IMG/VR virus record: IMGVR_UViG_3300046167_000387
Location: 1-58,918 of that record
Source: a virus
Lineage: Duplodnaviria; Caudoviricetes
Length of the DNA: 58,918 bases
Strand: one strand, 5' to 3'
Shown here: positions 3,166 through 58,296 of the stretch, piece by piece
Layout of the letters: each line of letters begins with the position of its first letter
How positions within the stretch are numbered: position 1 is the first letter of the stretch
Made by a program: the position numbers and the translations under genes
The notes under the pieces: generated by a model
Told to the model about the DNA's origin: nothing
The model's input: only the letters and a program-made list of their open reading frames with translations
The model's database searches: none

Positions 3166-3201
3166 TATATTATCCGAATATACTCGTATTTAGTTTACAA
3201 A
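3166..3201 (-). promoter_or_regulatory. early promoter-like repeat, copy 7
   Basis: TTTGTAAACTAAATACG-N10-GATAATATA. Confidence 0.8.
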
Positions 3202-3426
3202 TTTTCCAAAATATATATTAGAAAAAATAAAAAAATAGTTATATTAGTTACCGAGCATAACGCAGCAGAAGCTGAGATCTATCGCACAATCCGCAAAAAC
3301 ACTAAGGGGGCTGGTAAAAAATAAGTTAATTCCCGTTTTGGAAAAAAAAATTGTATAGCGTAGCGTAACCCAATAGTTCCCTGTATCTAAAAAAATTTTT
3401 AATATATTTTTTTCGGGTAAGGTAAT

Positions 3427-3481
3427 AAAGTGTGACATTAGCTAGTTATATATAATAGTAAGAGGCTATCGTCGCACTTTT
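3427..3481 (+). repeat. long imperfect palindrome, copy B (before the late arm)
   Basis: AAAGTGTGACATTAGC...TATAAT...GCTATCGTCGCACTTTT. Confidence 0.8.
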
Positions 3482-4599: not shown

Positions 4600-6153
4600 A
4601 TGGAATACAACAACCCAAGTGAGATTGTAAAAACACTCACATTCGGAAAAGAAGCAAATAGCCAAATAATAACAGGTGTTGAAAAATTAGCAAACGCAGT
4701 GAAGTCTACATTAGGAGCTTCAGGTAAATGCGTAATTTATGAAGACGCCTTAGGCAGACCGGTAATAACAAAAGACGGAGTAACCGTTGCAGAAAGCGTA
4801 GTCTTATTACACCCGGTCGAAAATATAGGGGCAACCTTAATAAAGCAAGCAGCGAGTAATACAGTTAGAGAAGCAGGGGACGGAACTACAACATCGACAG
4901 TCCTTGCTCATTCTCTATTAAAAGTTACAAACAAGCATTTAGATGAAGAAAAAATTAGAGACCTTAAATCAGGCATTATTAGCGGTGCTGACAAAGTTAA
5001 AGTATATCTTGATAAAACCAGTACTCCTGTTAAAGGTGAAATGTTACGAAATGTTGCTATCATTAGCTGCAACAACGACAAAGAGCTTGGGACCAAAATT
5101 GGTGAAGCTTATGAACAAGTTGGAAAAAATGGAGTTGTATTAATGGAACAATCTGAAACAAATGAAACTTATGTAGATTTTGTTGAAGGAGTACAATTTG
5201 ATAGTGGTTTAAAATCACCACACTTAATAACAGACAAGGAGAAGCATACAGCTGTTTTAAACGATCCTTACGTGCTTATTGTCTCTTCGCCTATAGTTAG
5301 CATTAGAAAGATTCAAAACGTCTTAGAACACGTTGTAAAGGCTAAAGGTAGTTTATTGATCGTAGCTGAAGTGGAGCAGCAACCATACGCAACTTTATTA
5401 TCAAACAAAGTTAAAGGTAATATAAAAGTAAACATTGTTGATGTACCTGGTTTTGGTTTAACAAAACAAGACACAATGGAAGACTTGGCTTTGTTAACTG
5501 GAGCTACTATAATAAATGAAGAATTGGGAGATGATCTAGATTTAATAGATCCACAAGTTTTAGGTAGAATTAAAAAATCAGTTACAGATGAAAAGTCAAC
5601 AGTATTACAAATTGGAGAAGACGTTGATGTAGCTACTAGAGTGGAAGAAGTTTCAAAGAGTATAGAAGAAGAAACAAATCCATTCTTTAAAAAGAAATTA
5701 GAACAACGTTTATCAATGCTTACTGGTAAAGTTGGTATTATATACGTAGGAGCTGATTCAGAGGTAGAGCTTAAAGAAAAGAAAGATAGAGTAGAAGACG
5801 CGATACACGCTACGAAAGCGGCTTACAAAGAAGGTATTGTTGCAGGTGGTGGAATTGCATTACTAAATGCAGCAAACAATTTAAAGCCATCCAATAAAGG
5901 TGAAGAGATATTGTTCGAGGCTATTAAAGCGCCATATTATACGATACTAGACAATGCTGACATTGTTGAAATAAAGAAACCGTCAATAAAAAACAGAGGT
6001 ATTGATGTAAGGACTGGTAAAGAAGTTAATATGATAAAATCCGGTATTATAGATCCAGTATTGGTTACTAAATCAGCTCTTAAGAATGCAGTAAGTGTTG
6101 TAACAACTATTGTTTCTGCAGATTGTGTAATTAGTAATAAAAGATTAGCATAA
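4600..6153 (+). CDS. groEL: chaperonin GroEL
   Basis: ITKDGVTVA, AGDGTTT, GIVAGGG and GIIDP motifs; lacks the GGM tail. Confidence 0.97.
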   Translation: MEYNNPSEIVKTLTFGKEANSQIITGVEKLANAVKSTLGASGKCVIYEDALGRPVITKDGVTVAESVVLLHPVENIGATLIKQAASNTVREAGDGTTTSTVLAHSLLKVTNKHLDEEKIRDLKSGIISGADKVKVYLDKTSTPVKGEMLRNVAIISCNNDKELGTKIGEAYEQVGKNGVVLMEQSETNETYVDFVEGVQFDSGLKSPHLITDKEKHTAVLNDPYVLIVSSPIVSIRKIQNVLEHVVKAKGSLLIVAEVEQQPYATLLSNKVKGNIKVNIVDVPGFGLTKQDTMEDLALLTGATIINEELGDDLDLIDPQVLGRIKKSVTDEKSTVLQIGEDVDVATRVEEVSKSIEEETNPFFKKKLEQRLSMLTGKVGIIYVGADSEVELKEKKDRVEDAIHATKAAYKEGIVAGGGIALLNAANNLKPSNKGEEILFEAIKAPYYTILDNADIVEIKKPSIKNRGIDVRTGKEVNMIKSGIIDPVLVTKSALKNAVSVVTTIVSADCVISNKRLA

Positions 6154-7511: not shown

Positions 7512-7793
7512 ATGAGATATAAAGCAAAATCAATTACAAGTAAAGCATCTAGTGCGTGTAAAATTAACATGGGCTTGGTTATGGGGGAGGCTGATGTTCA
7601 AAACTCTAAGTCTTTTGTAGACTACAGTAGTCTTATGGCTAAGAAAATGAAAGCAGGTGGAGGAAAAACCTCTTCGACTGCTGTAGAAATAGATAACAGT
7701 GAAAATAACACTGATGATAACAGTGAAAATAACACTGATGATAACAGTGAAAATAACACTGATGATAACACATCTAACATTAATAACAATTAA
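7512..7793 (+). CDS. hypothetical protein with DNSENNTD repeats
   Basis: Likely start MRYKAK immediately after the corrected peptidase stop. Confidence 0.65.
   Translation: MRYKAKSITSKASSACKINMGLVMGEADVQNSKSFVDYSSLMAKKMKAGGGKTSSTAVEIDNSENNTDDNSENNTDDNSENNTDDNTSNINNN
7692..7770 (+). repeat. 24-bp tandem repeat x3.3
   Basis: GATAACAGTGAAAATAACACTGAT units at 7692, 7716 and 7740. Confidence 0.95.
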
Positions 7794-24129: not shown

Positions 24130-27100
24130 ATGCCAGAATTATTGCACACGTTTACGTCAGGAAAAATGAATAAAGACCTTGACGAAAGGTTACTTCCTAA
24201 TGGCGAATATCGAGATGCTTTAAATTTAGAAGTAGCCTCATCTGATACTTCTCAGGTAGGCACATTTCAGAATTTAAAAGGTAATACTGAAAAATCATAT
24301 TCTAGCTACAATCCCACTACAAACCAATATACTGTATGGGATCCAGCTATATATATAAGCGCGTTAACTAACGCAGTATGTATAGGTTCCATTGCGGAGC
24401 CTAATTCAGATATGATATACTGGTTTATTACTTCAGACGAAGCAGATATAATAGCCAGCTATAACACGGTAACAAAAGTTACTTTACCTTTGATAGTAGA
24501 TGTTAAAAAGATTATAACAAGACAAGACGGATCAACATACAAAAATGGCGTTTTTAACTTCAATGCTGACCACCTAATTACGGGTGTAAACATAATAGAG
24601 GGTATATTGCTTTGGACAGATAACCAAACAGAACCTAAGCAAATATATATATCAGAATGGATTGGATCTACACCTGATTTCTTTACGCACTCACAATTTT
24701 ATAATAGAGATTTTATAGAGTCAGATACGACTGTTATAAAAAAGTTTCCGCTGCAGCCACCTACAATAACAGCTTATTCAACTTCAGCTGTTGATGATAA
24801 CGGCAACCCTGCGGTTGTAACTACTGCAACTTTATATTCATTTTATGTGCCAGACCCTTCGGGAGTACCTGGTCAAGCAATACCTATGACTCCGGATAGC
24901 GGGCCTCAGACTTTGCAGTGGCAAGGTAATAATTTACCTTTTTATAGGCCAGGTCAAATATTGTTATTAGTTAGTGCTTCCGCAGACTCCTTAGATCCAG
25001 CGTCTACTATCCGTGTTAGTATAGATAGCGTTATAGGATCAGGCGGTAATCAAACAGGAGCTGTGGTTACAGTTCTTTCAGTAGGTTTATCTGACGACGG
25101 AGGGCTAAATACACAAACTTTATATGACGTAACTTTAGAACAAGAAAAACCTTTTTTTGAATTTAGATTTGCTAGATTCGGCTACAGGTACAAATATAAA
25201 AACAACGAAGTATCAGCATATTCTCCTTTCACTAATCCAGCGTTTATTCCAGGAGAGTTTAACTACTCACCTAAGGAAGGTTACAACCTGGGTATGGTTA
25301 ATAATATAAGACAGCTTGAAATTTCAAACTTTATACCAACAGACGTGCCTGATGGTGTAGCAAGTGTGGATATCCTTTACAAAGCATCGAACAATTCTAA
25401 TGTCTATGTGGTTGATACTTTTAAAGAAACAGATTCAGAATGGATTTCCAATACATTCAATATATCAACCGAAATAATAAGTTCTGTTGTACAAAGCAAT
25501 CAGTTATTAAGACCTTACGATAATGTACCTAGATTCGCTTTAGGACAAGAAGTAATTGCTAACAGATTAATATTTGCGAATTACACGCAGAACTTTAACA
25601 TGTTAACGTCTAACTTAGACCCTCTTCAAGTTAATCTAAATGTATCTGCACTGTCGAGTCCAATACTAAGTACAGTAGGTGGCGTGGATATCGGTAAAGG
25701 TTTGGATGGTAAAAGCGTATATCCTTCTGTAAAAAGTATTAGAACCTATCAAATAGGTGTTGGTTACCAAGATGAATACGGTAGAACTACCCCGGTATTT
25801 ACAAGTAAAGATGCGTCTGTAGTGGTTGAAAAGTCGGAATCAGCATTTACAAATAGCTTGACAGCTCAGCTAGTTAATACAAAACCTTATTACGATCAAG
25901 GTAAGACTTTCTCTACTTTTAAATATTATGTAAAAGAAACTAGCCAGGAATATTATAATTTATGTTTAGACAGATTCTATGATGCCGAAGACGGTAATAT
26001 ATGGCTATCATTTCCATCTGCTGAAAGAAATAAAATAGATGAGGAAACTTTTCTTATATTAAAGAAAGAGCATGACAGCAATGAGGCGGTGACAGAGGAA
26101 GCAAGGTATAAAGTTATAGCTATTGAAAATGAAGCTCCTTTGTTTTTAAAAGAAACCAGACAGTCAATGGGAGTAATGCCTACGGAATTTTTTGCCGGGG
26201 GTGTACCTATAGAAGGCACTAATGAAGTGTGGGTAGAAAAAACAGGTACAACTCCAGCTGGATTTGATGAAATTTTTGGTGAAGACACGAGAACAGAATC
26301 TGGTTTACTTCTTAGAGTTATAAGTGCATCGAATCAAAGTGATTATTATAAGATTTCAACTTTTGGATTAGCAGGAGGTAATAATGAATATGTAAGAATA
26401 GTGTCTTCGAAACCATTTGAAGAGGATATGTTTTTTACAACCGTTAACCCAGACGGTTCTGGGGGTGTAGTTCCGGGTTTATCATTAGAGCTAGTAAGAA
26501 CTGAAACTTTGAACAAAGCAGAATTTACTGGTAGATTTTTTGTTAAAGTAAATGAAGACGCTTCTTTAAGAGAAAGAGTACTCGCTGCTAGTTCTACAGC
26601 TTCTAACAATTATGTAAGAAAAGCTTTTGAACCTGCCTACTATTTACAAGGGCAATATAGCACTTCAAATTGGTGGAGGAACAGGTGGCCCTACAATGAT
26701 GCGGTTAATGGTAGAAGCAGAATGTTTATAGACAACATGAGGACTACCTGTAGTAAGGATTTAAAAAACCTGACTGGGCAAGGTATTAAAAGCAACAGCA
26801 TGGATATATCTTATGCAGGAGGCTGGGGAAGAGGAGCTACTACATCTGGAATTTACAAGTCAAGGCCAGCTTTAGTGAAGCAATTAAGTTCAGTTGGCAC
26901 TTTGTTTAGATTTGTAGATGCTGGAAATGGAATATCAGACACAGATGGTACTATTTATAAGATAACAGCTTCGCACAAACAACTAGGTACTTGTTACCGC
27001 TGTAGCGGAGGTGGGCGTTTTAATGATGAATTAAATCAGTTTGTAAGATTTTCTATTGATTTTGTTCAATTAGATGATGGCTTTAGCGGATTGACTTGGA

Positions 27101-29637
27101 ATCCGGTAACAGCGTCTGACGGGATTATACCATATAGTGATTCAAGCAACAATAACTGGGCTACTTCTTATGTAGGTATTGAATTTATTGGAAGGGATTT
27201 AAGTAACAGTGATTTCACAACTAACAATCCGGCTATTTTTGAAACAGAACCCAAAGAAGCAACCGAGCTGGATATTTATCACGAAATAGCAGGAAACTAC
27301 CCTATGAGTGAACACGGTAACTTGCATACACTAGATTGGTTTAATTGTTATTCATTCGGTAACGGAGTAGAATCTGATAGGATTAGAGATGACTATAATG
27401 CACCTGTTGTAGGTAACGGTGTTAAAGCTTCTGCTACTTTAGATGAACCTTACGAGCAAGAAACAAGATCTAACGGTTTAATATTTTCACAAATATTTAA
27501 TTCAACATCAGGCGTGAATGGCTTAAATCAATTTATTCAAGCAGAAAATATAACAAAAGACGTTAATCCAGAATATGGTTCAATTCAAAAACTACACGCT
27601 AGAGACACTGATTTAATCACATTGTGTGAAAACAAGTCAATGAAGATTCTAGCTAATAAGGACGCTTTATTTAACGCTGATGGTAGCGCGAATGTAACCT
27701 CCAACAAAGCTGTTCTTGGTCAAACAGTAACATACCAAGGAGAATACGGCATCGGTACAAATCCAGAATCATTTGCTGAGTTCGGATTTAGAATGTATTT
27801 TGTAGATTCAAATAGAGGAACTGTTATAAGGTTATCTACTGATGGAATAACACCTATTTCAGAGTACGGCATGAGTGGCTTTTTTCAAGACAACTTACCT
27901 GTTAACAAGAAAATAATCGGATCTTGGGATGCGAATACAAGTAATTACAATGTAACTTTGAATACTCTTACTCCTTATTGGCAACAAACATTAGGAGCTG
28001 GTAAAACAGATAGACTTAATAAAGATTCTGAATGTGGAGCTTTTATTAATGAATATCCTACATATTCAACTACAATTTCTTTCAAGGATTCTTTAAATGG
28101 CTGGACGTCTAGGAAAGTGTATATACCTGAAAATGGGATTAGTCTAAATAATGTTTACTACACATTTAGTTCAGGTAAGATTTGGGAGATGAACTCGAAC
28201 ACATCGTATAATAACTTCTTCGGTATAGGTCCAGCGCATGTAAGTTTAGGTCCTTACTATGAAAGTTCTTTTACTGATATTTTTAACGAAAGCTCTGTGG
28301 CTATAAAGGATTTTAGAACTATTAATTACAACGGTACAGACTCTCGTAAATACATATACAAAACTACAGCAACAGGTGATAAGCACTTATCTTTGGCTCA
28401 ATTACAAGCGCAACAATTAATACCTACAGAGGTATCAACAACTGAAGGTTGGTATACTAATTCTATAGTGACAGACTTACAAGAAGGGGAGATTAAAGAG
28501 TTTGTAAATAAAGAAGGTAAATACTATAATTACATAAAAGGATTACCTACGTTTTTTGTGGATGATTGCGATAATAATGTAAACTCCAAAGAATTTAATG
28601 TCCAAGGTATCGGTAGAGCTTCTAGTATAACAGGTGCTGATGCTTCGGAATTTAATGTGAACGTAAGCACGCTTCAAAATTCAGAGTGCTATTTTATTAC
28701 AGATGATAATTTTTACCAGTTAGTAGGAGAGTCGCTCTCAGCAGATCCGATTAATGGCGGTAGTGTCCCAGTGTTTGGGTTGATGTCAACTTGGGACGTT
28801 AGCAGGGTTACGAACATGAGTAGTGCTTTTTATAATGCTTCTACTTTTAACGGAGATATTAGTGGTTGGGATACAAGTAATGTTGAAAGAATGGATGGTA
28901 TGTTTTATGGTGCATCATCTTTCAATCAAGATATTAGTAATTGGGATGTGAGTAGTGTGACTAATATGAGGTATATGTTTTATAAAGCAGATACTTTCAA
29001 TCAAGACATTGGTTCTTGGGATGTTAGTAATGTGATAGATATGGAATCTATGTTTTATTTTGCATCTACTTTTAACCGAGATATTGGTTCCTGGGATGTA
29101 GGTGCAGTCACTGATATGTATCTTATGTTTTCTCGAGCTGCTTCATTTAATCAAGACCTTAATTCTTGGGACACATCTTCTGTTACGAATATGTCTACTA
29201 TGTTTAATTATGCAACATCTTTCAATCAAGACCTAAATTCTTGGGATACATCTTCTGTTACGAATATGCAACAAATGTTTAATGGTGCTAGTGTATTTAA
29301 TGGTGATATAAGTTCTTGGGATGTGAGTAATGTTTGGAATATGTTTAGTATGTTTACTGGTGCAAGTGTATTCAATCAAAACCTAAATTCTTGGGATACA
29401 AGCAATGTTACAAATATGCATAAAATGTTTGAAGACGCAGAAGATTTCAACGGAGATATAAGTGACTGGAATACAAGTAGTGTTCTTGATATGGATGGTA
29501 TGTTTTTAGATGCATCCGACTTTAATCAAGATTTAACAGGTTGGTGTGTTACAAATATTACCTCAGAACCAACTGAATTTAGTTTAAATGCTCCTTTAAC
29601 TAGTGCTAACAAACCCGTTTGGGGTACTTGTCCATAG
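24130..29637 (+). CDS. tail stabilisation/muzzle protein with C-terminal DUF285 (BspA-like) repeats
   Basis: [23 protein letters not shown]-terminus, [11 protein letters not shown]; about 10 WDxSxVTNMxxMF repeats. Confidence 0.8.
28770..29560 (+). repeat. 75-bp (25-aa) DUF285-type coding repeats
   Basis: FNQD[IL]xxWD[VT]SxV.[ND]M..MF periodicity. Confidence 0.9.
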
Positions 29638-29664: not shown

Positions 29665-31605
29665 ATGAGCACTCAATTTCAAAATTATTCTATTTCCGAA
29701 GTTAACTTCGTCGAGTCCGCGGGAAACGACTTAGGTAATTCAGGCAGTCATTTTCTACTTGTTATACCAGATACTGGATATACTGTAGGTGTTAATAATT
29801 TTACTGTTTCAAATGTTCCAACAGAAATTACTAACTATTCGTTAAATCAAGATGGCTTAAATTTAAGATTCAATTTTGATTTTACCAATGGGACCATAAT
29901 GCCTAGTAATGATATTGATTTTTCATTATGTATACAAGGATTTGCGGTTGAAGAGCAGTTTACAGTTCAAGGAAGCGTTGACATTACAACAACTAACTCT
30001 GTTCCATTACCTCAAATTATTACTTATTCGGAATCAGGTTCTTTTGGTTCATCTAAAACTGTATTTACGCAAACAATAACAGCGGACGCTGGATATTACT
30101 TTCCAACAGTACCTACTGCTTCTTTGGTTATTGGTTCATTAAGTAACTATTCAATTTCACAATCTATAGGTGTTGACCTTAACGGTAATATAACAGCGAT
30201 CACTTTTACTGTGGATTATGAGTTTCCAAATTACTCTGTAACAGGCGACAGTATAGTAATTACAGCAGATGCTGAAGAGCTATATAATCCAACTATAGAG
30301 ATACAATCTTATTCTATAAGTTCTTCTTACTTACTTATATCCGGAGAAACTAGGCCTATTACAATATATGGAATAACCGGAGCGGCTTGGCAATTGGAAG
30401 TTATAGAAAGTGTTGGAGGGATAACAATTGGTCAATTTTCAGGGACAATAGATAGTACTGGATCAGCCACAGAAGATATAATTTTCCCAGCATCATTAGT
30501 TGATGTAGAGTATATACTTATATTAACCGGAGATTTAGCGAGTACTTTTTGTCCAGGTTCTCCTTGTTTAACAGGTCAGCCATCTGTATGGTCATTATAT
30601 CAATACGCACAACAACAGGTTAGTTTTGCCTTAACTACTACCAGCCAGAATATAACAGTGAGTGCTTCAGACGATAAGTTCTTTAGCCCTGACTCTTCTC
30701 CGGGTTTTAGATCTTACAGCGTGTCGGCTTCTAAGTCAGCTAGTAGTTCTGATTTTATATTTGACACAACTCCTGTTGCTAGTAATTGGAGTAATCAAGG
30801 GTTAGGTATTCCTCAGACTGATCAAGTAGTGCAAAGTCCATTATCTATAACAGTAGATAACTCGTCAGATCCTAAGACTTTAGTAATAGATTTAGAAACA
30901 AATATTTATCAGGTAGGGACTCAATCTTTATTAAGTGAACTTAATCTTGATGACTTTTTACTGTCATACACCGAATTAACATTGTGTTATGCTTTAACGG
31001 AAGCAGATCTATGCTGCGGCACTTCAGAGTCTCGTACAGTATTTGTGTCAGGAGATGTAGCTAATTTAGCCAGTGTAACAGGGGATTTATATACGGATGC
31101 TACGCTTCAAACTAAAGCTGCCGATGGATATTACAGTGACGATGCCGGTATATCATGTACCTCCTCGTCTTTAACTGCTTTCAATACATCGGTAGGAAAC
31201 ACTACAGATAATTGTTCATTACCTCAAGTGACACCCTTATATTTTCAAGTAGTACCTCCGGCAACAAATCAATCTCCGTTAATTGGCGACGCTGTTTTTT
31301 CTGACCAAAACGGAACGATTCTAAACAATACAACAACTACTATGTACTACATAGCTTCGGCAACTGCTTACGGGGTTAATCAAGGCGTGGTTGTTTCTAT
31401 AGCACCTTGTACAATACCTCCTCCAGGTAGATCATATTTGCTTCAAAATGGAGGGCAATCTGATGCGTACTATAGCTACACTAATACTTCAGGCGGATTA
31501 GTTTCTGGTTTGTTAGGTGGGTTTGAGAGTGTTGATATTTGTGCGCAAACTGACACGGTATCGGCAGATACGAATATAAGTGTAAATCGGGGACCAGCTT
31601 GCTAA
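29665..31605 (+). CDS. beta-rich tail-associated structural protein
   Basis: S/T-rich, Ig-like strands, Cys pairs. Confidence 0.7.
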   Translation: MSTQFQNYSISEVNFVESAGNDLGNSGSHFLLVIPDTGYTVGVNNFTVSNVPTEITNYSLNQDGLNLRFNFDFTNGTIMPSNDIDFSLCIQGFAVEEQFTVQGSVDITTTNSVPLPQIITYSESGSFGSSKTVFTQTITADAGYYFPTVPTASLVIGSLSNYSISQSIGVDLNGNITAITFTVDYEFPNYSVTGDSIVITADAEELYNPTIEIQSYSISSSYLLISGETRPITIYGITGAAWQLEVIESVGGITIGQFSGTIDSTGSATEDIIFPASLVDVEYILILTGDLASTFCPGSPCLTGQPSVWSLYQYAQQQVSFALTTTSQNITVSASDDKFFSPDSSPGFRSYSVSASKSASSSDFIFDTTPVASNWSNQGLGIPQTDQVVQSPLSITVDNSSDPKTLVIDLETNIYQVGTQSLLSELNLDDFLLSYTELTLCYALTEADLCCGTSESRTVFVSGDVANLASVTGDLYTDATLQTKAADGYYSDDAGISCTSSSLTAFNTSVGNTTDNCSLPQVTPLYFQVVPPATNQSPLIGDAVFSDQNGTILNNTTTTMYYIASATAYGVNQGVVVSIAPCTIPPPGRSYLLQNGGQSDAYYSYTNTSGGLVSGLLGGFESVDICAQTDTVSADTNISVNRGPAC

Positions 31606-35210: not shown

Positions 35211-38200
35211 ATGGAAAAATTATTCAAAGTACTTTCTGAACAAGGTAAATATACTAAATCTTTAGAAGATTTTCAAACACAGTTTGGATCTATAGAAGGA
35301 CAGAAAAAACTATACGGAGCGTTAGAAGGCGCAGGTGATTATACTAAATCTTTCGAAGACTTTAGTAACCAATTCTTTAGCAGCGATGTAGCAAAGATAA
35401 ACGACTCTGCGAGTGCGGATCCAACTGTGGAGTCAAGCGTTATGGGGTTCAAATCGGAAAATGGTTCTTCGGAATTACCAAATGAAAAGAACACTTGGTT
35501 AGAAAACTTTTTTGGAGAAGAAGAAGACGCTGAAGACAAACTTTTTGGCGCTGTAGATTTTGTTAGTGATCTATGGAGATCAGGTAAAGGTGGATGGGCT
35601 GTTGGTGCAAGTGTAGATGAATCTTTTGATCTATTTAAATCAGAGGGAGGTTTGTCTGAAGAAGATGCTGCTGCTTTGGTTGAAGCAGGAAGAAACGTTG
35701 AAAGCTACGGTTCCACTAACGAACAAATTGCAGCTTCCAATAAAATGAAAAAACTACAGGAAGAAGGTTATTCTGGAGTTGGAGCTTTTATTACCGCGTA
35801 TTGGGATAATCCTAGCGCTTTAGCTAGTACTATGACTAGTTCCTTAGCTATGATGGCTTCCAGTTTTTTCGATAGCGAAGAGGTTAGATATAGTGCTGCT
35901 GCAGGTTCAGGCGTAGGAGCCGCCACAGGAGCGGCTGGAGGAGCTGCTACAGGAGCAGTGTTTGGTGGAATAGGAGCTGTTCCGGGGGCTATAATAGGAG
36001 CAAAACTAGGTGCAGTCAGTGGAGCTATGAGTGGAATTACAGCGGCTATGGAAACGGGGCTTACCACAGCTCAGCTACTGGAAGAGCAAGCTATATCTAC
36101 AGGTTTAGATTGGGGGGTAATGACTGACAAACAAAGAATTAATTTTGTTATGAGTCTTACAAAGGATAAAGAACAATTTGACGACTTAAAAAATAAAGCT
36201 TTAGCTAGAGGTTTAACTATCGGAGGAGTTGATTTTGTGGTTAGCATGGCTACCTTTGGTGTAGGTAAACTTGTTTCAGGTAGAATAGCAGGAACAGCTG
36301 TAAGTGCTCTTACAAAGCCGATAACAGGTTTAGCTAGAGGGACAACAGAATCTGTTGGAGCGGGTGTAGGGGAGTATTTAGGGCAAAAAGCTGCTGGTCA
36401 AGAATTTAATTTTGAAGAAATTGCTTTAGAAGCTCTTGCGGATAAGCAAGCTACTGTTATTTCTGCTGTCAAAAACATAAGAAAAGGTAATCCATCATAC
36501 AAGCTTAACGGTGAGAAAATGAATGGTAAGAGATTTTCAGAGCAACTGAAGATCATGGATGACGTAGCTATAGTAGAAGCTAGAATAGAGGTAGAAAACT
36601 CTCCTGGTGTGCAAAAATTAGTAGATAATAGAAGGCAAAACATTTCGGCTGATCAAAAAGTTGACAGTTCGATAAACGGAGTAGAAGACAGAGCTGAGGC
36701 TATCAGATTAACAAAAGAAAAAAACAAACTTCAAAAAAACAAAGAAGGAAATAAATCTAAATTAGAGAAAGTCGATGCTGCACTTAATACTATAATAGAA
36801 AAGTACGCAGACTCCGACGCGGATGTTACCATACAAGAAAGACAAGAAGCTGTAGCAGCAGCTGTTGAAACTAAATTTGAAACAGAATTTAATAAAAACT
36901 ACAAAGCTCTTAAAGACAAGCAAAAAGAAACTGGCATTGAACCTATTATATTTGAAGATGACAATTTATTCGCTGAAACAGCAGCTAAGGATCTTAACGT
37001 TACCAAAGAGTATATACTTAAAGAAGCACCTGAGGGTGTTTTTGTAGGTGGAGGAAAAGTATATATAAATAAAAATCAAGCTAAAAGAAGTATTAATATA
37101 GCTACTGGAAATAATGGGGCAATATCAGTAACGAGTCACGAGGTTCTTCATCCAATATTTAATGCTTTAATAGGTGGAGCAAAATCGCAAGGTCAATTTG
37201 TTAAACAGTTTAAAAAACAAATGACTAGCAAACAAAAAGCTTATGTTAATAAAAGACTAAAGTCAAGCTATAAGAATAATCCTAGCGCAGAAGCTATAGA
37301 GCTTATGAATATTTTTTCTGATGGTATAATTAAAAATGATATTAGTTATGATCGAACTACATTTGAAAAATTAGGTGATTCTATAACTAGTCTTTTTAGG
37401 TCAGCTATTGGTTTAAAAACAAATGAAATTTCTTTTGAAGACGGTAGAGGCGTTTTTAACTTTCTAAAAGAATACAACACTAGTGTAAAAGCTGGTAAAT
37501 TAAGCGACAAGGCTATATCTGCTATTAAAGAAGCAGAAACAAAAAAGAAAACTACCGTAGCTAAAGCTAAGCTGCTAGGGCAAACACAATTTTCTATTTC
37601 CGTAGAACAAGCAGAAGCTAATCTACAAGCAGCAGAAGACGCTGATCCAAACGACCCTAGCTATCTTGATAACTTAGAAAAAGCGGAGATTGCATTAGAA
37701 GAAGCGGAAGAAGCGGCTAAAGCGCCAAAACCGGTTACTGAACCTGTTGTTAAAAAAGAAGTTAAGCCTAAAGCAAAAGTTGCAAGACCTGAAAAACCAA
37801 CAAGAACCACAGACTTAGGCCCTAGAGATCCTATATCTAAAAAAATAATGTCTACTTACAACGAAGACATGGAAGGCGTTGATAGACCTGAGTATAAAGC
37901 TAATAAACCTCTACCGTCTTCTTTAGAAAGAAAATTAATACCTTTATTTGAAGGTTATATTAATACTATTGTACAACAAAAATTTAAACAAGCAAGCCCT
38001 GAAGCTTTAGAATTTCAAGACGCTTTGTCTATATTAAGAGCTGAGGTAAGTAATGCTATACGTACATTTAATCCTGCTAAAAACAAAGACTTAGCTGGTT
38101 ACGTAAAGAAAATAGTTCAGACTAGGCAATCATTAATGTTTAAGGATGCTAGCAAAGAATTCACGTCGGATATAGAAGGAGATGCTGCTAAGGGTGTTGT

Positions 38201-41200
38201 TGCTACAGAAGATGAAGTAAGTGTTGATAGAAGTGGCGCTGTAGAAAGAGGCCAAGCTACTTTTGATCAATTAGAAGTTGTTGACGATGCTTTAATCGAA
38301 GATATATCCCAAGAGTTAGAAAAAGAGATAAGAGTAAGAACGCAAAAAGGAGCATTGTCAGAAGCTCGTAAAGTTACTCAAAAAATAAAAGGTAAATCAT
38401 ACGAAACTTTAGTGTCTTGGATTGAAGACTACGTTGAAAAAACATTGTTCAAAAAATTAAGTAAAAAGTTAGGTGCTGTTGGTCAAACAAAAGACAAGAT
38501 TACTGGAGAGCAGAAAACCCGTATACCAGGTCCATACATAGACTTTTTAAACGATAAAAATACTTTTGATATAATTACTAAAGCTTTGCCTATTAAGACT
38601 CTTAAAAGTAACTATAGCAAATTATTCAAAGTAACTAAAATAGGTAGAGAAAAAACAGCAGAAGGTAATCCTATATTCAAGGTAGAGCCTACAACCCCAA
38701 AAGCTTTTTTACAATACTTTTTAGATGGTAAATATGGAACGCTTTTAGCTAGACAAAAACAGTTGTTTAGGGAAATACTTAGACCTGTAGCAAAAGAAGT
38801 TGTTGCTGATTACGCTACTCCTGAAAATTTGATTGAATTAAAATCAATACAAGAGCTTGCTCCAGCGGAATCTATAGACGCTATAGAAAACATAGTTTTA
38901 GAAACTCAGTTAGCAAACCTTGAATCAAAGTTAGATAGATACAAAGGAGAAGAAAGAAGTTTTGACGTTATACAATTTAGTAAAGAAATAGATTCTAATG
39001 CTCCAAATGTAACTAATGAATTACTTTCTTTAGCTGGCCTTAATGCTGGTACTACTTTATTAAAAGACTCTAGTCAAGGTAAACAAAAGTTTTATATAGA
39101 TAGGTTAGAAAAATACTACGAAACAAGAGAAGAATTTATGAGATTTCTACCTCCTTCTATAACAAAATTTAGAACATTAGCAGCGTCTATACTTGGTTTT
39201 GTATATAGAGAAGATGGGTCTTATTACGATTTTTATAAATATGATTACAAGAAAGCAGTTAATGAAGAAGGAGAAACGATAATAGATAAAAAGCGGCTTA
39301 ACGATTTATTCGAAAGAGGGAAAGCTTCTTTTAGAAATAAACTTCTTGATTCCAAGGGCACCGTATCCGAATACTCTGATACTACAAAAAGCCTTATAGA
39401 AGAAGTAAATAAATTAATTGAAGAAGCAGATCTAGGAAGGCTAACACCTAACCTTCACTCAGGTAGAATTGCTGCAGCTAAAGCACAATTAAATAAAAAT
39501 ATAGTTATTGAGGCCTCATTAGCTCAAGAAGTGCTAAACCACTTAGGTAAAAACAATACGCTTAACACAAAAATAGCTGAGCTATATATAAGTCTTTTAA
39601 GAGATTTTGTCAAAGCATCGAAAAACAAAAAACAAGTTAAAGCATCTGTTGTTAATATGTTATTAGCTACAAATAATACCGTTAACGGGTGGAGATCTTT
39701 ATCTTTTATATCTAGTATAATATATAACAAAAACAAAGTTACTGATTACTATTTTGAACACAATGATTCAATGAAGTTCGTTCTCCCTATTATACTTGTT
39801 CAAGTATTAGGAAAAGGCCCTATATCATTTGAAGTAGATTCTTCTTTAATACCTGTAGATTTAGCTAATACAAAAAACAAAAAGCAAAAAACTAAAGTAG
39901 GTAGCAAATCAGTTACTTATGAATTTTATAAAAAAGAATTATCTAAAGATAAAAATTTAGAAATTGTGACTATACAAGCGTCTAAGAGCGAAAGACTTAG
40001 CGTTGATGTTTACCACGGCGGAAATATACAAAAAACAGGTGACATAAATGGTATAGTTTATTTTTCAGAAGATAAAGCTCAAGCTGCAGAATATGCTAAA
40101 GGTAATTACGGAGAAGTTAAAAACTTTGTGATAAAAGCAGAAAACGTTGTTTCAGAAGAAAAAGTATTTGAAGTAATAGAAAAGCTGGGTATTCAGCCTA
40201 AAACAAAAGGTTATAAAGTAGATGAACTTAATTTATATGAGTTAATTGACCCTAGATTTGAACAAGAATCATTTTCTAAAAAAGATTTAAGTAGATTAAC
40301 TAAAGCTCTTAAAAAGAAAGGTATAAAAGCCTCTAGGTTTACTGATACTGATTTGAAAACAGGCAAAGACACTACCAATATAGTAGTGTTTGATAAGTCT
40401 GTAATTCAAGAATCTGATATTCAGTTTTCTAAAGGAATGAACGAAGTGTTTAACGACATGATCGAAGGAGCTACCGGTATTGAAACCTATAAAAGATTTT
40501 CTAAAGCTAAAGGTAAAGTAAGAGGTAGAAATAAAGGTAGATTCAAATTCTTTATTCCACCTTCAGCTGATGATTTTGCTGGACTACTATATAGATTATT
40601 AGGTAAAAAAGAACAAGGAAATCTTGATGCGGCTTGGTTTAAAGAAAAACTTTTTGATCCTTTTGCTAAAGGCATTAGAGACTTTGAAGCTTATAAGCAA
40701 AGAGCAACTAAAATTGTAGCTAAACTAAAGAAAGATATAAAAAATATACCTTCAGGTTTATCTAAAATTAATGAAACAGGTTTTACGAATGAACAAGCTG
40801 TTAGAGTATATTTATGGGTTAAAAACGGTCATGACATAGATGGATTAACCGCTACTGATCAAAAGGAGTTAATAAAAATAGTTAATGACAACCCTGCTTT
40901 AAAAAGATTTGCAGAGGAAGTTGATATTGCTTTGCAAGGTTATCCAGAACCTAATAAAGAATGGCTTGCAGGTAGCATAACTACAGACGCTATAAATATG
41001 GTTAACACTGCTAAAAGAGCAGAGTTTCTTAAAGAATGGCAAGCTAATGCTGATTTAATATTTTCAGAGCAAAATTTAAACAAACTTAGAGCTGCTTACG
41101 GCGATAATTATGTTGAAGCCTTACAAGATATGTTATACCGAATGAAGACTGGTAGAAACAGGCCTTCTGGAGCTAACAAGCTTACTAATAAGTTTATGAA

Positions 41201-42449
41201 TTGGGTAAATGATTCCGTAGGAACTATCATGTTCTTTAACACTAGATCAGCGCTACTTCAGACATTGTCTATAGCTAACTTTATTAATTGGGGAGACAAC
41301 AATCCAGCTAAAGCAGCAATGGCTTTTGCAAATCAAAAACAATTTTGGGCTGATTTTGCAATGCTGTTTAATTCAGATTTCTTAAAACAAAGGAGATCCG
41401 GATTAAAAACCGATGTCAATGCTGATGATATTGCAAGTGCAGCTGAAACCTCTACTAATAAAGCAAAAGCAGTTTTAGCTTCGTTATTAAAAATGGGATT
41501 CTTACCTACGCAAATGGCAGATAGTTTCGCTATTGCAATGGGTGGGGCTTCATTTATAAGGAACAGGATCAACGCTCTTAAGAAAGAAGGCATGACAGAA
41601 GCAGAAGCTATGGATAAAGCGTTCTTAGATTTTCAAGAAATAGCAGAAGAGACACAACAGTCTTCAAGACCAGATAGAATATCTCAACAACAAGCTAGTC
41701 CATTAGGCCGTATTATATTAGCATTTGCGAATACTCCTATGCAATATATGAGATTAACTAAAAAAGCTTTCTTGGATCTTAAAAACGGACGTGGAGATAA
41801 AAGAACTAATATATCAAAGATAGCTTATTATATGTTTGTACAAAACATAATATTCTCCGCTCTACAAACAGCTTTATTTTCAGCCTTGTTTGACGACGAT
41901 GAAGAAGAGCTTGACAAAAAAGAAATAAGAATAGCTAATTCAATGCTTGACAGTATTCTTAGAGGAGTTGGGGTTTATGGAGCAATTGTATCTACAGGTA
42001 AAAACATATACTTAGAAATAGATAAGCAGTCTAAAAAACCTAAACCAGATTTTACTCAAGCAGCTATTAGATCTTTAGATTTATCACCACCTATATCTTC
42101 AAAGATTAGAAAACTTATGAGTGCAGGTAGGGCTTTTAGCTTTAAAACCACAAGAGAAAAGATGGTGGGATTCGATTTAGATAATCCAGCTATATATGCA
42201 GGAGGACAAGTTGTTTCTGCATTGACAAATATACCTTTAGATAGAGCTATTAAAAAAGCGGACAACTTAAGGACAGCTGTTGATAATGATACTAAATTTT
42301 GGCAATCTGTGGCTCTTACTTTGGGTTATAGTAAATGGGATTTAGGATTAGTAGAAACATCTAAAACTAAAGGTAAGAAAAGTAAATTTGGAGTAACAAG
42401 TAGCTGGAAACGACCGGTTAAAAAAAGAAAATTCAAAAGAGGGGAATAA
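35211..42449 (+). CDS. giant polyvalent (putative ejected) protein: Gly/Ala TM-like region, HExxH peptidase, sigma region-2-like and ART-like domains
   Basis: GA-rich segment, SHEVLH at 37134-37151, sigma-like 37935-38147, VYHG...YFS...IVVFD at 40008-40394. Confidence 0.75.
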   Translation: MEKLFKVLSEQGKYTKSLEDFQTQFGSIEGQKKLYGALEGAGDYTKSFEDFSNQFFSSDVAKINDSASADPTVESSVMGFKSENGSSELPNEKNTWLENFFGEEEDAEDKLFGAVDFVSDLWRSGKGGWAVGASVDESFDLFKSEGGLSEEDAAALVEAGRNVESYGSTNEQIAASNKMKKLQEEGYSGVGAFITAYWDNPSALASTMTSSLAMMASSFFDSEEVRYSAAAGSGVGAATGAAGGAATGAVFGGIGAVPGAIIGAKLGAVSGAMSGITAAMETGLTTAQLLEEQAISTGLDWGVMTDKQRINFVMSLTKDKEQFDDLKNKALARGLTIGGVDFVVSMATFGVGKLVSGRIAGTAVSALTKPITGLARGTTESVGAGVGEYLGQKAAGQEFNFEEIALEALADKQATVISAVKNIRKGNPSYKLNGEKMNGKRFSEQLKIMDDVAIVEARIEVENSPGVQKLVDNRRQNISADQKVDSSINGVEDRAEAIRLTKEKNKLQKNKEGNKSKLEKVDAALNTIIEKYADSDADVTIQERQEAVAAAVETKFETEFNKNYKALKDKQKETGIEPIIFEDDNLFAETAAKDLNVTKEYILKEAPEGVFVGGGKVYINKNQAKRSINIATGNNGAISVTSHEVLHPIFNALIGGAKSQGQFVKQFKKQMTSKQKAYVNKRLKSSYKNNPSAEAIELMNIFSDGIIKNDISYDRTTFEKLGDSITSLFRSAIGLKTNEISFEDGRGVFNFLKEYNTSVKAGKLSDKAISAIKEAETKKKTTVAKAKLLGQTQFSISVEQAEANLQAAEDADPNDPSYLDNLEKAEIALEEAEEAAKAPKPVTEPVVKKEVKPKAKVARPEKPTRTTDLGPRDPISKKIMSTYNEDMEGVDRPEYKANKPLPSSLERKLIPLFEGYINTIVQQKFKQASPEALEFQDALSILRAEVSNAIRTFNPAKNKDLAGYVKKIVQTRQSLMFKDASKEFTSDIEGDAAKGVVATEDEVSVDRSGAVERGQATFDQLEVVDDALIEDISQELEKEIRVRTQKGALSEARKVTQKIKGKSYETLVSWIEDYVEKTLFKKLSKKLGAVGQTKDKITGEQKTRIPGPYIDFLNDKNTFDIITKALPIKTLKSNYSKLFKVTKIGREKTAEGNPIFKVEPTTPKAFLQYFLDGKYGTLLARQKQLFREILRPVAKEVVADYATPENLIELKSIQELAPAESIDAIENIVLETQLANLESKLDRYKGEERSFDVIQFSKEIDSNAPNVTNELLSLAGLNAGTTLLKDSSQGKQKFYIDRLEKYYETREEFMRFLPPSITKFRTLAASILGFVYREDGSYYDFYKYDYKKAVNEEGETIIDKKRLNDLFERGKASFRNKLLDSKGTVSEYSDTTKSLIEEVNKLIEEADLGRLTPNLHSGRIAAAKAQLNKNIVIEASLAQEVLNHLGKNNTLNTKIAELYISLLRDFVKASKNKKQVKASVVNMLLATNNTVNGWRSLSFISSIIYNKNKVTDYYFEHNDSMKFVLPIILVQVLGKGPISFEVDSSLIPVDLANTKNKKQKTKVGSKSVTYEFYKKELSKDKNLEIVTIQASKSERLSVDVYHGGNIQKTGDINGIVYFSEDKAQAAEYAKGNYGEVKNFVIKAENVVSEEKVFEVIEKLGIQPKTKGYKVDELNLYELIDPRFEQESFSKKDLSRLTKALKKKGIKASRFTDTDLKTGKDTTNIVVFDKSVIQESDIQFSKGMNEVFNDMIEGATGIETYKRFSKAKGKVRGRNKGRFKFFIPPSADDFAGLLYRLLGKKEQGNLDAAWFKEKLFDPFAKGIRDFEAYKQRATKIVAKLKKDIKNIPSGLSKINETGFTNEQAVRVYLWVKNGHDIDGLTATDQKELIKIVNDNPALKRFAEEVDIALQGYPEPNKEWLAGSITTDAINMVNTAKRAEFLKEWQANADLIFSEQNLNKLRAAYGDNYVEALQDMLYRMKTGRNRPSGANKLTNKFMNWVNDSVGTIMFFNTRSALLQTLSIANFINWGDNNPAKAAMAFANQKQFWADFAMLFNSDFLKQRRSGLKTDVNADDIASAAETSTNKAKAVLASLLKMGFLPTQMADSFAIAMGGASFIRNRINALKKEGMTEAEAMDKAFLDFQEIAEETQQSSRPDRISQQQASPLGRIILAFANTPMQYMRLTKKAFLDLKNGRGDKRTNISKIAYYMFVQNIIFSALQTALFSALFDDDEEELDKKEIRIANSMLDSILRGVGVYGAIVSTGKNIYLEIDKQSKKPKPDFTQAAIRSLDLSPPISSKIRKLMSAGRAFSFKTTREKMVGFDLDNPAIYAGGQVVSALTNIPLDRAIKKADNLRTAVDNDTKFWQSVALTLGYSKWDLGLVETSKTKGKKSKFGVTSSWKRPVKKRKFKRGE

Positions 42450-52120: not shown

Positions 52121-52156
52121 AATATTATCGATTGTTATTCGTATTTAGTCTGCAAA
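52121..52156 (-). promoter_or_regulatory. early promoter-like repeat, copy 8 (variant)
   Basis: TTTGCAGACTAAATACG-N10-GATAATATT. Confidence 0.7.
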
Positions 52157-53461: not shown

Positions 53462-54220
53462 CTAAAGATAATCAATCACTTGGGTGGGATCGGTGTTTGC
53501 TATTAAGTGATCAATTGCTTCTTTTTTAATCTGAACGATCCTTGTTGCAGCAGAAGGAACTGTTAGCCCTATATAGGCCGCCACGTCTTTTGCTGATAAC
53601 TTATCGCAATCTAATCCATAAGAAAGCCTTAACACGTTGTACTGCTTGGTAGTTAAGTGTTGTTTCATTAAACTTAATAGATAAGTGTTTAACATTCCTA
53701 TATTATAATCTTCAGATTCATCTGCTATTTTGAAAGCAAAATTATCATCGCTCTCATTGACAGGTATATCATAACTTAAAAATATACTATTAAAAAATAG
53801 AGCTACCATTTTATCATCATCTGGGTTTTTTCTGATTTGTATTAGTTTGTTCTCAGGGATTTTTATATTACCTCTATTGATGTCTATTGCTCTTCTTATA
53901 GCGCCTTTAATTCTTTTGCTAAAGAAAGATTTTAAAGTTTTTTCTATATCAGGTGATTCATTTAACATTTCCCAGTTTAGTTTATCCACAGCTTTTATTA
54001 AACCTAAGTTGCCTTCTTGTATTAAATCATTAATACTCATAACACCTATAGCTTGTTGAGATGTTGGAAATTTTCTAGCTAAGTTTTCTACTAAAGGTAA
54101 AAATCTTATTATTAGTTCGTCTCTAGTATGTTCATCATAAAACTTACCCCCTAGATTACGTATAGAGGTCTTTAAATCTTCTTTGTACCTTACATAGTTT
54201 TGTATATTATAATTCTTCAT
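53462..54220 (-). CDS. phage sigma-70 family factor
   Basis: Region 2 LVENLARKF...DLIQEGNLGLIKAVDK; region 4 LRLSYGL...AKDVA...RIVQIK. Confidence 0.9.
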   Translation of the reverse strand: MKNYNIQNYVRYKEDLKTSIRNLGGKFYDEHTRDELIIRFLPLVENLARKFPTSQQAIGVMSINDLIQEGNLGLIKAVDKLNWEMLNESPDIEKTLKSFFSKRIKGAIRRAIDINRGNIKIPENKLIQIRKNPDDDKMVALFFNSIFLSYDIPVNESDDNFAFKIADESEDYNIGMLNTYLLSLMKQHLTTKQYNVLRLSYGLDCDKLSAKDVAAYIGLTVPSAATRIVQIKKEAIDHLIANTDPTQVIDYL

Positions 54221-54483: not shown

Positions 54484-55104
54484 CTATAATTGCTGGTTTA
54501 ATAATTCTTTTTCTTTTTTAAGTTCGTTGTTCATGTTTCTATATATAGTCCTAGTAGAGCAATCTAAAACATTCGACAGCTTTGTCATAGTTATTTTTTC
54601 GTCAGCGTGATTAATCAAAATCATTGCATCGTATATTTCACTATTAGATATTTTAGATCTTCCAACTAACGTACCTACTATAGCAAGCTTTTGTCGCATT
54701 TCAAGACCTGTATTGTCTTTAAATATTACTTTACGTAGCTTATTAGGAGGAGGTAACTCTAAATCCATTAAAGACACATCGTATATCATGCTTTGCAATA
54801 GCTGATCAGAAACTGTAAAAGTAACAAATCCACATTTCTTGTTACATATATACTTACAAAGCGCTTCAAAACCTTCTTGATCCATTTGAGGATTCAAGTA
54901 CCATAATACATACAAATGCCATTTAAGCCCTTTATATGTGTTTATTTTAGCTTTAGAATTAAACAGTGTATAGCACTCTCGTGTTCCTTGCTCGTAATAA
55001 TATCCCCACTCAAATATATCTGTAGGTTTATCCGTAATTGGATCACGCCTATATATTACTTTATGGCGATTTAAGTACGATGTATCTCTTATATAGTGCG
55101 ACAT
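54484..55104 (-). CDS. DNA-binding protein with C-terminal HTH
   Basis: ITMTKLSNVLDCSTRTIYRNM; start codon lies inside palindrome C. Confidence 0.7.
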   Translation of the reverse strand: MSHYIRDTSYLNRHKVIYRRDPITDKPTDIFEWGYYYEQGTRECYTLFNSKAKINTYKGLKWHLYVLWYLNPQMDQEGFEALCKYICNKKCGFVTFTVSDQLLQSMIYDVSLMDLELPPPNKLRKVIFKDNTGLEMRQKLAIVGTLVGRSKISNSEIYDAMILINHADEKITMTKLSNVLDCSTRTIYRNMNNELKKEKELLNQQL

Positions 55105-55146
55105 TAGCTTCTTACTATTATAATTAACAAGCTAGTGTCACATTTT
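55095..55146 (-). repeat. long imperfect palindrome, copy C
   Basis: Reverse complement AAAATGTGACACTAGC...TATAAT...GCTAATGTCGCACT. Confidence 0.8.
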
Positions 55147-55218
55147 TGTAATCAATGCTTATTAATTGGTTTTTGGTTTCAGGTTTTTTAGATATTTATT
55201 AAAAATAAATATTTTTTT

Positions 55219-56205: not shown

Positions 56206-56241
56206 TATATTATCGTTTATTGTTCGTATTTAGTTTGTAAA
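56206..56241 (-). promoter_or_regulatory. early promoter-like repeat, copy 9
   Basis: Consensus match. Confidence 0.8.
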
Positions 56242-57041: not shown

Positions 57042-57077
57042 TATATTATCAACTAGTGATCGTATTTAGTTTGTAAA
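57042..57077 (-). promoter_or_regulatory. early promoter-like repeat, copy 10
   Basis: Consensus match. Confidence 0.8.
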
Positions 57078-58260: not shown

Positions 58261-58296
58261 TATATTATCAATAGTTGTTCGTGTTTAGTTTGTAAA
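58261..58296 (-). promoter_or_regulatory. early promoter-like repeat, copy 11
   Basis: TTTACAAACTAAACACG-N10-GATAATATA. Confidence 0.8.

Follow-up and report, generated by a model that had tools for sequence, protein, structure and literature searches.

Phages are known to start early transcription either from promoters recognized by the host holoenzyme or by injecting a whole RNA polymerase, as the N4-like, crAss-like and phiKZ-like phages do. The late sigma factor of T4, gp55, is a free protein which is made during infection, reads a single -10-type element and needs both gp33 and the sliding clamp. Here we describe a sigma-2-like domain located inside a giant protein of 2412 aa, encoded by the virus record IMGVR_UViG_3300046167_000387 (Duplodnaviria; Caudoviricetes). 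The window analysed is the whole of this record, 58,918 nt (58.9 kb), with a completeness estimate of 92%. Residues ~903-989 of the giant protein very probably constitute a genuine, very divergent sigma-2 domain of the sigma-70 family, encompassing regions 2.1-2.4.

The sigma-2 family as such is known, while its location inside a giant protein of the particle-gene arm seems to be new. Sigmas of the sigma-70 family are free subunits of 20-70 kDa, whereas the domain described here is embedded in a 2412-aa protein that yielded neither a sigma-3 nor a sigma-4. The phage domain also lacks the paired Trp residues of the housekeeping sigmas. Like T4 gp55 (7d7d chain F), it appears to have a minimal architecture consisting of sigma-2 only; unlike gp55, it is fused into a giant particle-arm protein, and its action would precede all expression of phage genes. 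The gp50 of N4-like phages and the gp66 of the crAss-like phage phi14:2 are likewise giant proteins encoded by particle genes, and entry together with the DNA and a start at phage-specific early promoters are proposed here for the phage protein as well. These virion RNA polymerases are, however, complete polymerases, while the giant protein offers a sigma-like specificity or docking domain only, and the host core polymerase would therefore still be needed. With the free phage sigmas, both the one encoded in the window itself (53462-54220) and those of the phiEco32 gp36 type, the domain shares family membership at the level of region 2.

In its layout the giant protein also resembles the polyvalent proteins, which in the main text of the paper describing them likewise combine conserved blocks with swappable effector cassettes (Iyer et al. 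2017, PMC5512222); an HExxH motif of the metallopeptidase type and a weak ART-PolyVal likeness may be further points in common. Neither "sigma" nor the Greek letter appears in that main text, and a sigma-2 module therefore seems not to be among the polyvalent domains treated there. T4 Alt, an injected modifier of the polymerase, was compared alongside the polyvalent proteins. The literature covered, which includes PMC12282133, PMC7318152 and PMC5335546, yielded no description of a sigma that is packaged or injected.

Sequence evidence for a divergent sigma-2 domain

A preliminary description of the window, made from the letters and their open reading frames, had singled out a 71-residue peptide as similar to region 2 of sigma-70. 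This peptide agrees letter for letter with the translation of 37935-38147 on the plus strand (residues 909-979), and the similarity was upheld by profile, language-model and fold evidence. Two profiles of the module were compared with 177,635 distinct PDB sequences: one from 16 homologues (A1), and a more diverse one of 16 sequences (A2) which includes distant members retrieved by a search of 1.84 billion representatives. The top match of A1 was the sigma factor 8b3z_A (E 4.4e-4; three rows at E<=10). With A2, the same entry, the N-terminal domain of SigE, reached E 1.8e-6 at 31.1 bits; pro-sigma-K (8vjl_B) had E 4.5e-4 across positions 21-99 of the profile, and RpoH was the fourth of five rows at E<=10. 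The significance rose, in other words, once more distant homologues had joined the profile. Throughout regions 2.1-2.4 the A2 alignment keeps its register: the conserved Asp of the profile meets that of ...EDLISIG..., its Pro that of FNP and its Tyr that of ...TYA.... A control profile of the neighbouring 590-860 region gave no sigma match in the PDB.

Sigma70_r2 (PF04542) was the commonest Pfam family among the members of both profiles, with matches in 4/16 of A1 (best E 0.0035) and 6/16 of A2 (best E 2.3e-4); the 121-aa piece of the record itself is not among the matching members. When all six frames of the record were scanned, this family was found at two places only, the free sigma gene (E 4.9e-8) and 38001-38117. 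Neither Sigma70_r3 nor Sigma70_r4 matched the giant protein in Pfam scans of the whole protein and of tiles. A language-model feature search with residues 900-990 placed clusters of Sigma70_r2 at 27 of the 30 named neighbours (top score 0.96), and several small viral proteins (~118 aa) with region 2 only are found among the neighbours.

The only invariant or near-invariant positions among the 16 members of the diverse alignment are V921, D937, P955, Y964, V965 and R972. SigE and SigK have their own Asp and Tyr opposite the invariant D937 and the near-invariant Y964. Y964, V965 and R972 belong to the helix that corresponds to regions 2.3/2.4, which read DNA, and D937 to the core-binding helix.

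Predicted fold

The AlphaFold model of residues 885-1005, based on alignment A1, has a mean pLDDT of 73.5 and a pTM of 0.64. Its helices (19-28, 30-43, 51-68 and 77-105 in the numbering of the piece), followed by a disordered tail, display the helix pattern of sigma-2. The fold comparison called for in the preliminary description gave sigma entries throughout the Foldseek rows listed, at E>=0.045, and sigma domain 2 at the top of VIA-align. All 49 listed Foldseek rows against the PDB are sigma factors or holoenzyme/initiation complexes, as judged from titles and chain letters. The best include pro-sigma-K, at E 0.045, and the N-terminal domain of SigE, with a probability of 1.00, a TM-score normalised to the target (TMt) of 0.75 and an rmsd of 2.3 Å over 79 columns. 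VIA-align, which is independent of Foldseek and covered 48,161 chains, gave the highest Z to pro-sigma-K (9.4; rmsd 2.3, 85 aligned), sigma-28 (9.3), SigE (8.9), sigma-70 (8.4), sigma-B (8.3) and sigma-32 (8.2), and 7.0 to T4 gp55 (rmsd 2.8 Å, 92 of 137 residues). Ranks 1-23 are sigma-related, except perhaps rank 20, and the first clearly unrelated entry is rank 24 (Z 6.3); rank 18 is an epitope scaffold, aligned along the same stretch as one of the sigma domain-2 entries. The second, longer model (residues 880-1265; pLDDT 65.6) gave sigma-related entries at ranks 1-27, with T4 gp55 at Z 6.7.

The sporulation sigmas SigE and SigK (8b3z and 8vjl), the closest among the sigma-70 domain 2 structures, have the same order and length of helices as the phage domain, with regions 2.1-2.4 in register, and share with it the region 2.2 Asp, the F/Y-N/D-P turn and the region 2.3 Tyr. 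Identity to canonical sigmas in the structural alignments is 9-20%. Taken alone, the fold evidence for sigma-2 is moderate, since Z values of this size can arise by chance among helical bundles; its weight comes from its agreement with the sequence evidence.

Distribution of the domain

More than 100 giant proteins of marine metagenomes have conserved the sigma-like domain. Homologues of the region numbered 145 at E<=0.001 among 2325 candidates, all of them giant proteins, and the module is present in ~105 of the 133 stored homologues on which our coverage map of the giant protein is based. An exhaustive search of the 1.84 billion representatives with A1 returned 29 proteins at E<=0.001, none of which is a stand-alone module; the only bona fide sigma among them is P0139 (Sigma70_r2 at 1e-29). 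Five short, apparently free-standing relatives were set aside as fragments or a distant branch, and no Pfam sigma match was found in any of them. A search of 185,579 species genomes gave no relative. In the syntenic phage MW202828, the first 1826 residues encoded by the giant gene contain no sigma-like module.

The giant protein and its genomic context

The sigma-like segment had been placed within a giant ejection protein, and this location is supported to the extent that the protein is multi-domain and, by gene order, terminates the particle-gene arm. The plus-strand arm encodes, in order, a GroEL-like chaperonin, the large terminase, the portal, virion proteins, a virion protein of 1835 aa and then the giant protein. 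On the minus-strand arm are genes for ribonucleotide reductase, thymidylate synthase, a primase-helicase, an exonuclease, an Erf-like protein and the free sigma factor. Portal relatives in 50,697 phage records (n=87, every one below 60% identity) are named after Flavobacterium (68), Cellulophaga (15), Tenacibaculum (2) and Maribacter (1), with one unnamed podovirus. Since these names are mostly those of Flavobacterium and Cellulophaga phages, they fit the earlier guess of a Flavobacteriia podovirus; the names of the portal relatives are the basis for this probable affiliation.

Two conserved blocks (residues ~600-1260 and ~1720-2400) flank a variable cassette (~1270-1720) in the map of homologues. 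An HExxH block precedes the sigma-like domain, and a conserved Glu is located 53 residues past the Glu of its HEVLH motif. In the alignment of the 590-860 region, H54, E55, H58 and E108 are shared by all 10 of 10 sequences, and H-E-x-x-H plus the downstream E is near-invariant across 32 sequences. The motif which the preliminary description had taken for the protein's own protease is thus retained as an invariant HExxH...E upstream of the domain, while the identity as a peptidase found no backing, the block having neither a Pfam family nor a PDB sequence match. For this reason "peptidase" is a reading at the level of the motif, and the block is a possible zinc metallopeptidase. Homologous gene calls of 1371-1526 aa (P0008, P0071, P0125 and P0061) begin no more than ~40 residues upstream of the sigma-like module, which hints at a natural boundary there; alternatively, these may be split giant genes or fragments.

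Downstream, homologues show module 2 to be separable from the sigma-like one. PDB sequences gave no match to module 2 and the protein atlas no lead (score 0.83), nor was there any match to sigma-3 or sigma-4, although the structure search probed module 2 barely. The cassette with the stretch resembling an ADP-ribosyltransferase (ART) is common to only ~11-17 of the 133 homologues, most of which have other sequence there. A tblastn search with the conserved C-terminal block gave no match in the 50,697 phage records. An RNA polymerase hidden in the giant protein was considered and rejected, as no motif of the DFDxD/DxDGD type is present in the five largest proteins of the record, and no polymerase family is found among the Pfam matches of the whole giant protein and ten overlapping tiles. 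For the giant protein, this agrees with the initial impression that no RNA polymerase was recognizable.

A glycine-zipper-like stretch is located at 35900-36040 (residues ~230-275), with sub-threshold matches to DUF6861 (25.2 bits vs 28) and Gly-zipper. No other segment near the N-terminus of the giant protein is strongly hydrophobic.

The free sigma factor and the promoter-like repeats

A free sigma at 53462-54220, proposed earlier, was recovered on the minus strand with matches to Sigma70_r2 and to the phrog_351 sigma factor (2.9e-21). It has at least 8000 relatives, all 8000 scored candidates falling at E<=0.001, and is kept in two relatives of the phage, G001 (75% identity) and G006 (66%), both of which carry the repeat motif described below.

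The 11 early-arm promoters of the preliminary description hold up as repeats: the pattern ATATTATC-N10-CGTRTTTAGT has 11 exact matches in the window, where shuffles predict 0.04. On the coding strand it reads TTTACAAACTAAAYACG-N10-GATAATAT. All 11 copies are located in two minus-strand regions, upstream of small minus-strand open reading frames (ORFs), and their GATAATAT end is the one closest to the genes. The TTTG / TAnnTTTG consensus of Bacteroidota promoters is not apparent in the repeats by eye.

In G001, a complete 60.6-kb relative with a module 79% identical, the motif has nine matches at <=3 mismatches (control 0). One copy (C1:30706-30733) ends 6 nt upstream of the free sigma gene (29948-30700), a gap that suggests a leaderless or near-leaderless transcript for the free sigma. 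As the free sigma gene itself stands behind the repeats, these seem to need a factor which precedes the free sigma. Among the fragment records, G003 has three matches, G004 one (control one), and G002 and G005 none. The core ATATTATC-N10-CGT is found four times in G006 (control 0) and in none of four other records, all fragments.

The co-variation of domain and promoter motif which the preliminary description had proposed as a check was not seen: the core is present in G006 despite an unrecognized module, and the free sigma is kept in both motif-bearing relatives. A group of homologues, P0088-P0122 (locus L020 3001-4089), has a different conserved module at the sigma-like position, with a loosely similar helix pattern in local alignment and a consensus of roughly ...IVTNRTKALYDPIA...REEF.ES...EYD..KQ.LEKF.V.RSYLRANNLAKRLG. 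This variant scores at most 8.4 bits with the sigma-like profile. As the variant may or may not be sigma-like itself, it weakens the co-variation argument in both directions.

Related elements of 28-57 nt with half-sites of the GTGCGACA/TGTCGCAC type are located at 3425-3481, 55091-55147 and 2185-2212 (families D11 and D12), one of them at the boundary of two divergent gene arms. These may represent operators or terminators.

Possible functions of the domain

Our favored, though tentative, proposal is that the domain is virion-borne, is delivered together with the DNA and binds the host polymerase at the clamp helices of the beta-prime subunit, where it serves as a minimal, gp55-like specificity factor at early promoters of the GATAATAT type. 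The giant protein would be packaged and would exit the particle along with the DNA. The sigma-2 domain, flanked by flexible linkers and perhaps released by the upstream HExxH module, would then dock on the clamp helices, like every sigma-2. It would seed a first round of transcription at the phage early promoters, with GATAATAT as the promoter-proximal element, until the later-made free sigma takes over. The most specific version, in which a particle-borne factor of sigma-2 only captures the host core polymerase at the very site of DNA entry and starts private promoters of this type before any phage expression, appears unlikely. Consistent with the proposal, the conserved Y964, V965 and R972 are found on the region 2.3/2.4-like helix alongside D937, and 11 repeats with identical cores are located upstream of the minus-strand early genes. 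We infer virion location, delivery, polymerase binding and promoter reading.

Several observations limit such a role or count against it. Virion location and injection are deduced from gene order, the gene following those for terminase, portal and virion proteins. No match to the 290-aa region, a 20-kb stretch or the C-terminal block was found in the 50,697 phage records. The giant protein of G006 (P0103) has a different module at the sigma-like position (<=8 bits with the profile) and yet the promoter core is present in this relative, which has conserved the free sigma too. No sigma-4 or other part reading a -35 element was found among PDB sequences or in the structure search, though the repeats have a long conserved upstream element. 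A complex prediction of the A2 module with residues 200-400 of RPOC_FLAJ1, a stand-in for the host beta-prime, gave a score of 0.02 against a mark of 0.32; as the beta-prime partner was folded with no alignment and its fold is uncertain, this modelled score speaks neither for nor against binding.

Some of these points would suit a domain which docks on the polymerase and confers no promoter specificity, either as a decoy competing with the host sigma at the clamp helices and thereby shutting off the host, or, by analogy with T4 Alt, an injected enzyme, as an address tag that takes the putative HExxH peptidase and the ART-like cassette to the polymerase. The evidence for sigma-2 identity serves this explanation equally well, and the missing sigma-4 partner and the persistence of the promoter core in a relative with an unrecognizable module are in line with it, as is the polyvalent layout with its swappable cassettes, its weak ART-PolyVal likeness (E 0.0019) and its invariant HExxH...E. 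However, the ART-like cassette is present in ~11-17 of 133 homologues and the sigma-like module in ~105, so the module cannot exist only to serve this cassette, and the helix resembling regions 2.3/2.4, needless for a pure decoy, is as conserved as the core-binding helix. Docking of this kind is rather unlikely in our estimate.

A comparable, low probability is given to an exapted descendant of sigma-2 which makes no polymerase contact, being instead a helical building block of an ejection or internal protein, or a piece of it binding DNA ends, with the repeats read by the host holoenzyme or the free sigma. The strong conservation of the free sigma in the motif-bearing relatives (75% and 66% identity) would be expected on such grounds, and the lack of co-variation between module and promoter, the lack of free-standing domains and the very low identity to canonical sigmas (9-20%) point the same way. 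It leaves unexplained, however, why the region 2.2 Asp and the region 2.3 Tyr are kept across 16 diverse members; the position of the free sigma gene behind the repeats also calls for another starter, and by eye the repeats do not show the Bacteroidota consensus.

The assignment to sigma-2 itself is weakened by a number of search results. Against the isolated 71-aa piece, Sigma70_r2 reached E 0.077 and 13.2 bits, under the Pfam gathering cut-off of 24 bits, the six-frame match at 38001-38117 (E 0.014, 11.5 bits) is likewise below it, and the whole giant protein and a 290-aa piece gave no sigma match in Pfam. P0139 owes its E of 9.2e-4 solely to the summing of two duplicated stretches (19.3 + 14.1 bits). 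The remaining four of five AlphaFold models have a pLDDT of just 57.8-61.6, no Foldseek row against the PDB is at E<=0.001, and by the tool's own note the VIA-align Z values lie within the range that helical bundles attain by chance. Comparison with the free sigma by hhalign gave nothing when this was a single sequence, and no match (probability 0.16) when it was a 13-sequence family of very low diversity; a local HMM alignment to 120 free-sigma relatives, in the right register, gave at most 6.1 bits and was not significant. As no profile-profile similarity is detectable, the domain and the free sigma are not recent duplicates. That a bundle of three to four helices should resemble sigma-2 by chance, for which the scores below the Pfam cut-off, the Foldseek E of at least 0.045, the middling Z values and the lack of an hhalign match could be cited, is nevertheless very unlikely, given that three independent kinds of evidence agree (profile E 1.8e-6, language model 27/30, structure rankings of two models), that the profile gained significance with more distant homologues and that the control profile of the neighbouring region found no sigma.

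Table 1. Positions of the features discussed, in window coordinates (residues are those of the giant protein).
Feature	Position	Strand	Basis
Seven repeat cores (family D2)	333-360, 1018-1045, 1549-1576, 1841-1868, 2454-2481, 2889-2916, 3167-3194	-	Exact pattern matches
Giant ORF, 2412 aa, multi-domain polyvalent-type; last large gene of the particle-gene arm	35211-42449	+	ORF list and translation
HEVLH motif, residues 643-647, possible zinc metallopeptidase	37137-37151	+	Regex match
Lys/Pro/Ala/Glu-rich linker, residues ~835-884, between HExxH block and sigma-like domain	37713-37862	+	Sequence reading
Full sigma-2-like helical domain, residues ~903-989	37917-38177	+	AlphaFold model, structure matches, profile matches
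Sigma-2-like domain core, residues 909-979	37935-38147	+	Exact peptide; Sigma70_r2 E 0.077
Module 2, alpha/beta, no assigned fold family, residues ~1026-1219, following a disordered linker	38286-38867	+	Model secondary structure
Weak ADP-ribosyltransferase (ART-PolyVal) likeness, residues ~1599-1702	40005-40316	+	PF18760 E 0.0019, 19.4 bits vs 31.2-bit cut-off
Conserved C-terminal block, residues ~1720-2400	40368-42410	+	Covered by ~120/133 homologues
Four further repeat cores	52122-52149, 56207-56234, 57043-57070, 58262-58289	-	Exact pattern matches
Free phage sigma factor gene, 252 aa	53462-54220	-	Sigma70_r2 E 1.3e-6, 28.5 bits (cut-off 24); Sigma70_r4 0.13

Other features of the record

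The GroEL-like chaperonin is encoded at 4600-6153 (phrog_5725, E 2.5e-137), and the syntenic relative MW202828 likewise has groEL, together with a GroES-like gene. The gene for the 1835-aa virion protein (24130-29637) contains nine tandem units of 75 nt at 28806-29555, with 61-72% identity to the reference copy (repeat family D1), which implies a repeat of 25 residues towards the C-terminus of the protein. At 7692-7770, a small plus-strand ORF contains a repeat with a 12-nt period (GATAACAGTGAAAATAACACTGATGATAACA; family D3) in five overlapping copies.

Significance

With more than 100 giant proteins carrying the domain and at least 8000 relatives of the free sigma, any function of the domain would concern a virus-host system that is common in the sea. 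A fragment of ~120 residues, together with the host core polymerase, would allow a direct test. Even if the domain merely docks, as a decoy or an address tag, it would add a new type of module to the repertoire of the polyvalent proteins. If the proposed role is true, a sigma-type domain carried on a particle protein would be an undescribed, intermediate solution, by which the host core enzyme is reprogrammed from the first second of infection, and would represent a third route for bootstrapping early transcription, in a large and abundant group of marine Flavobacteriia phages.

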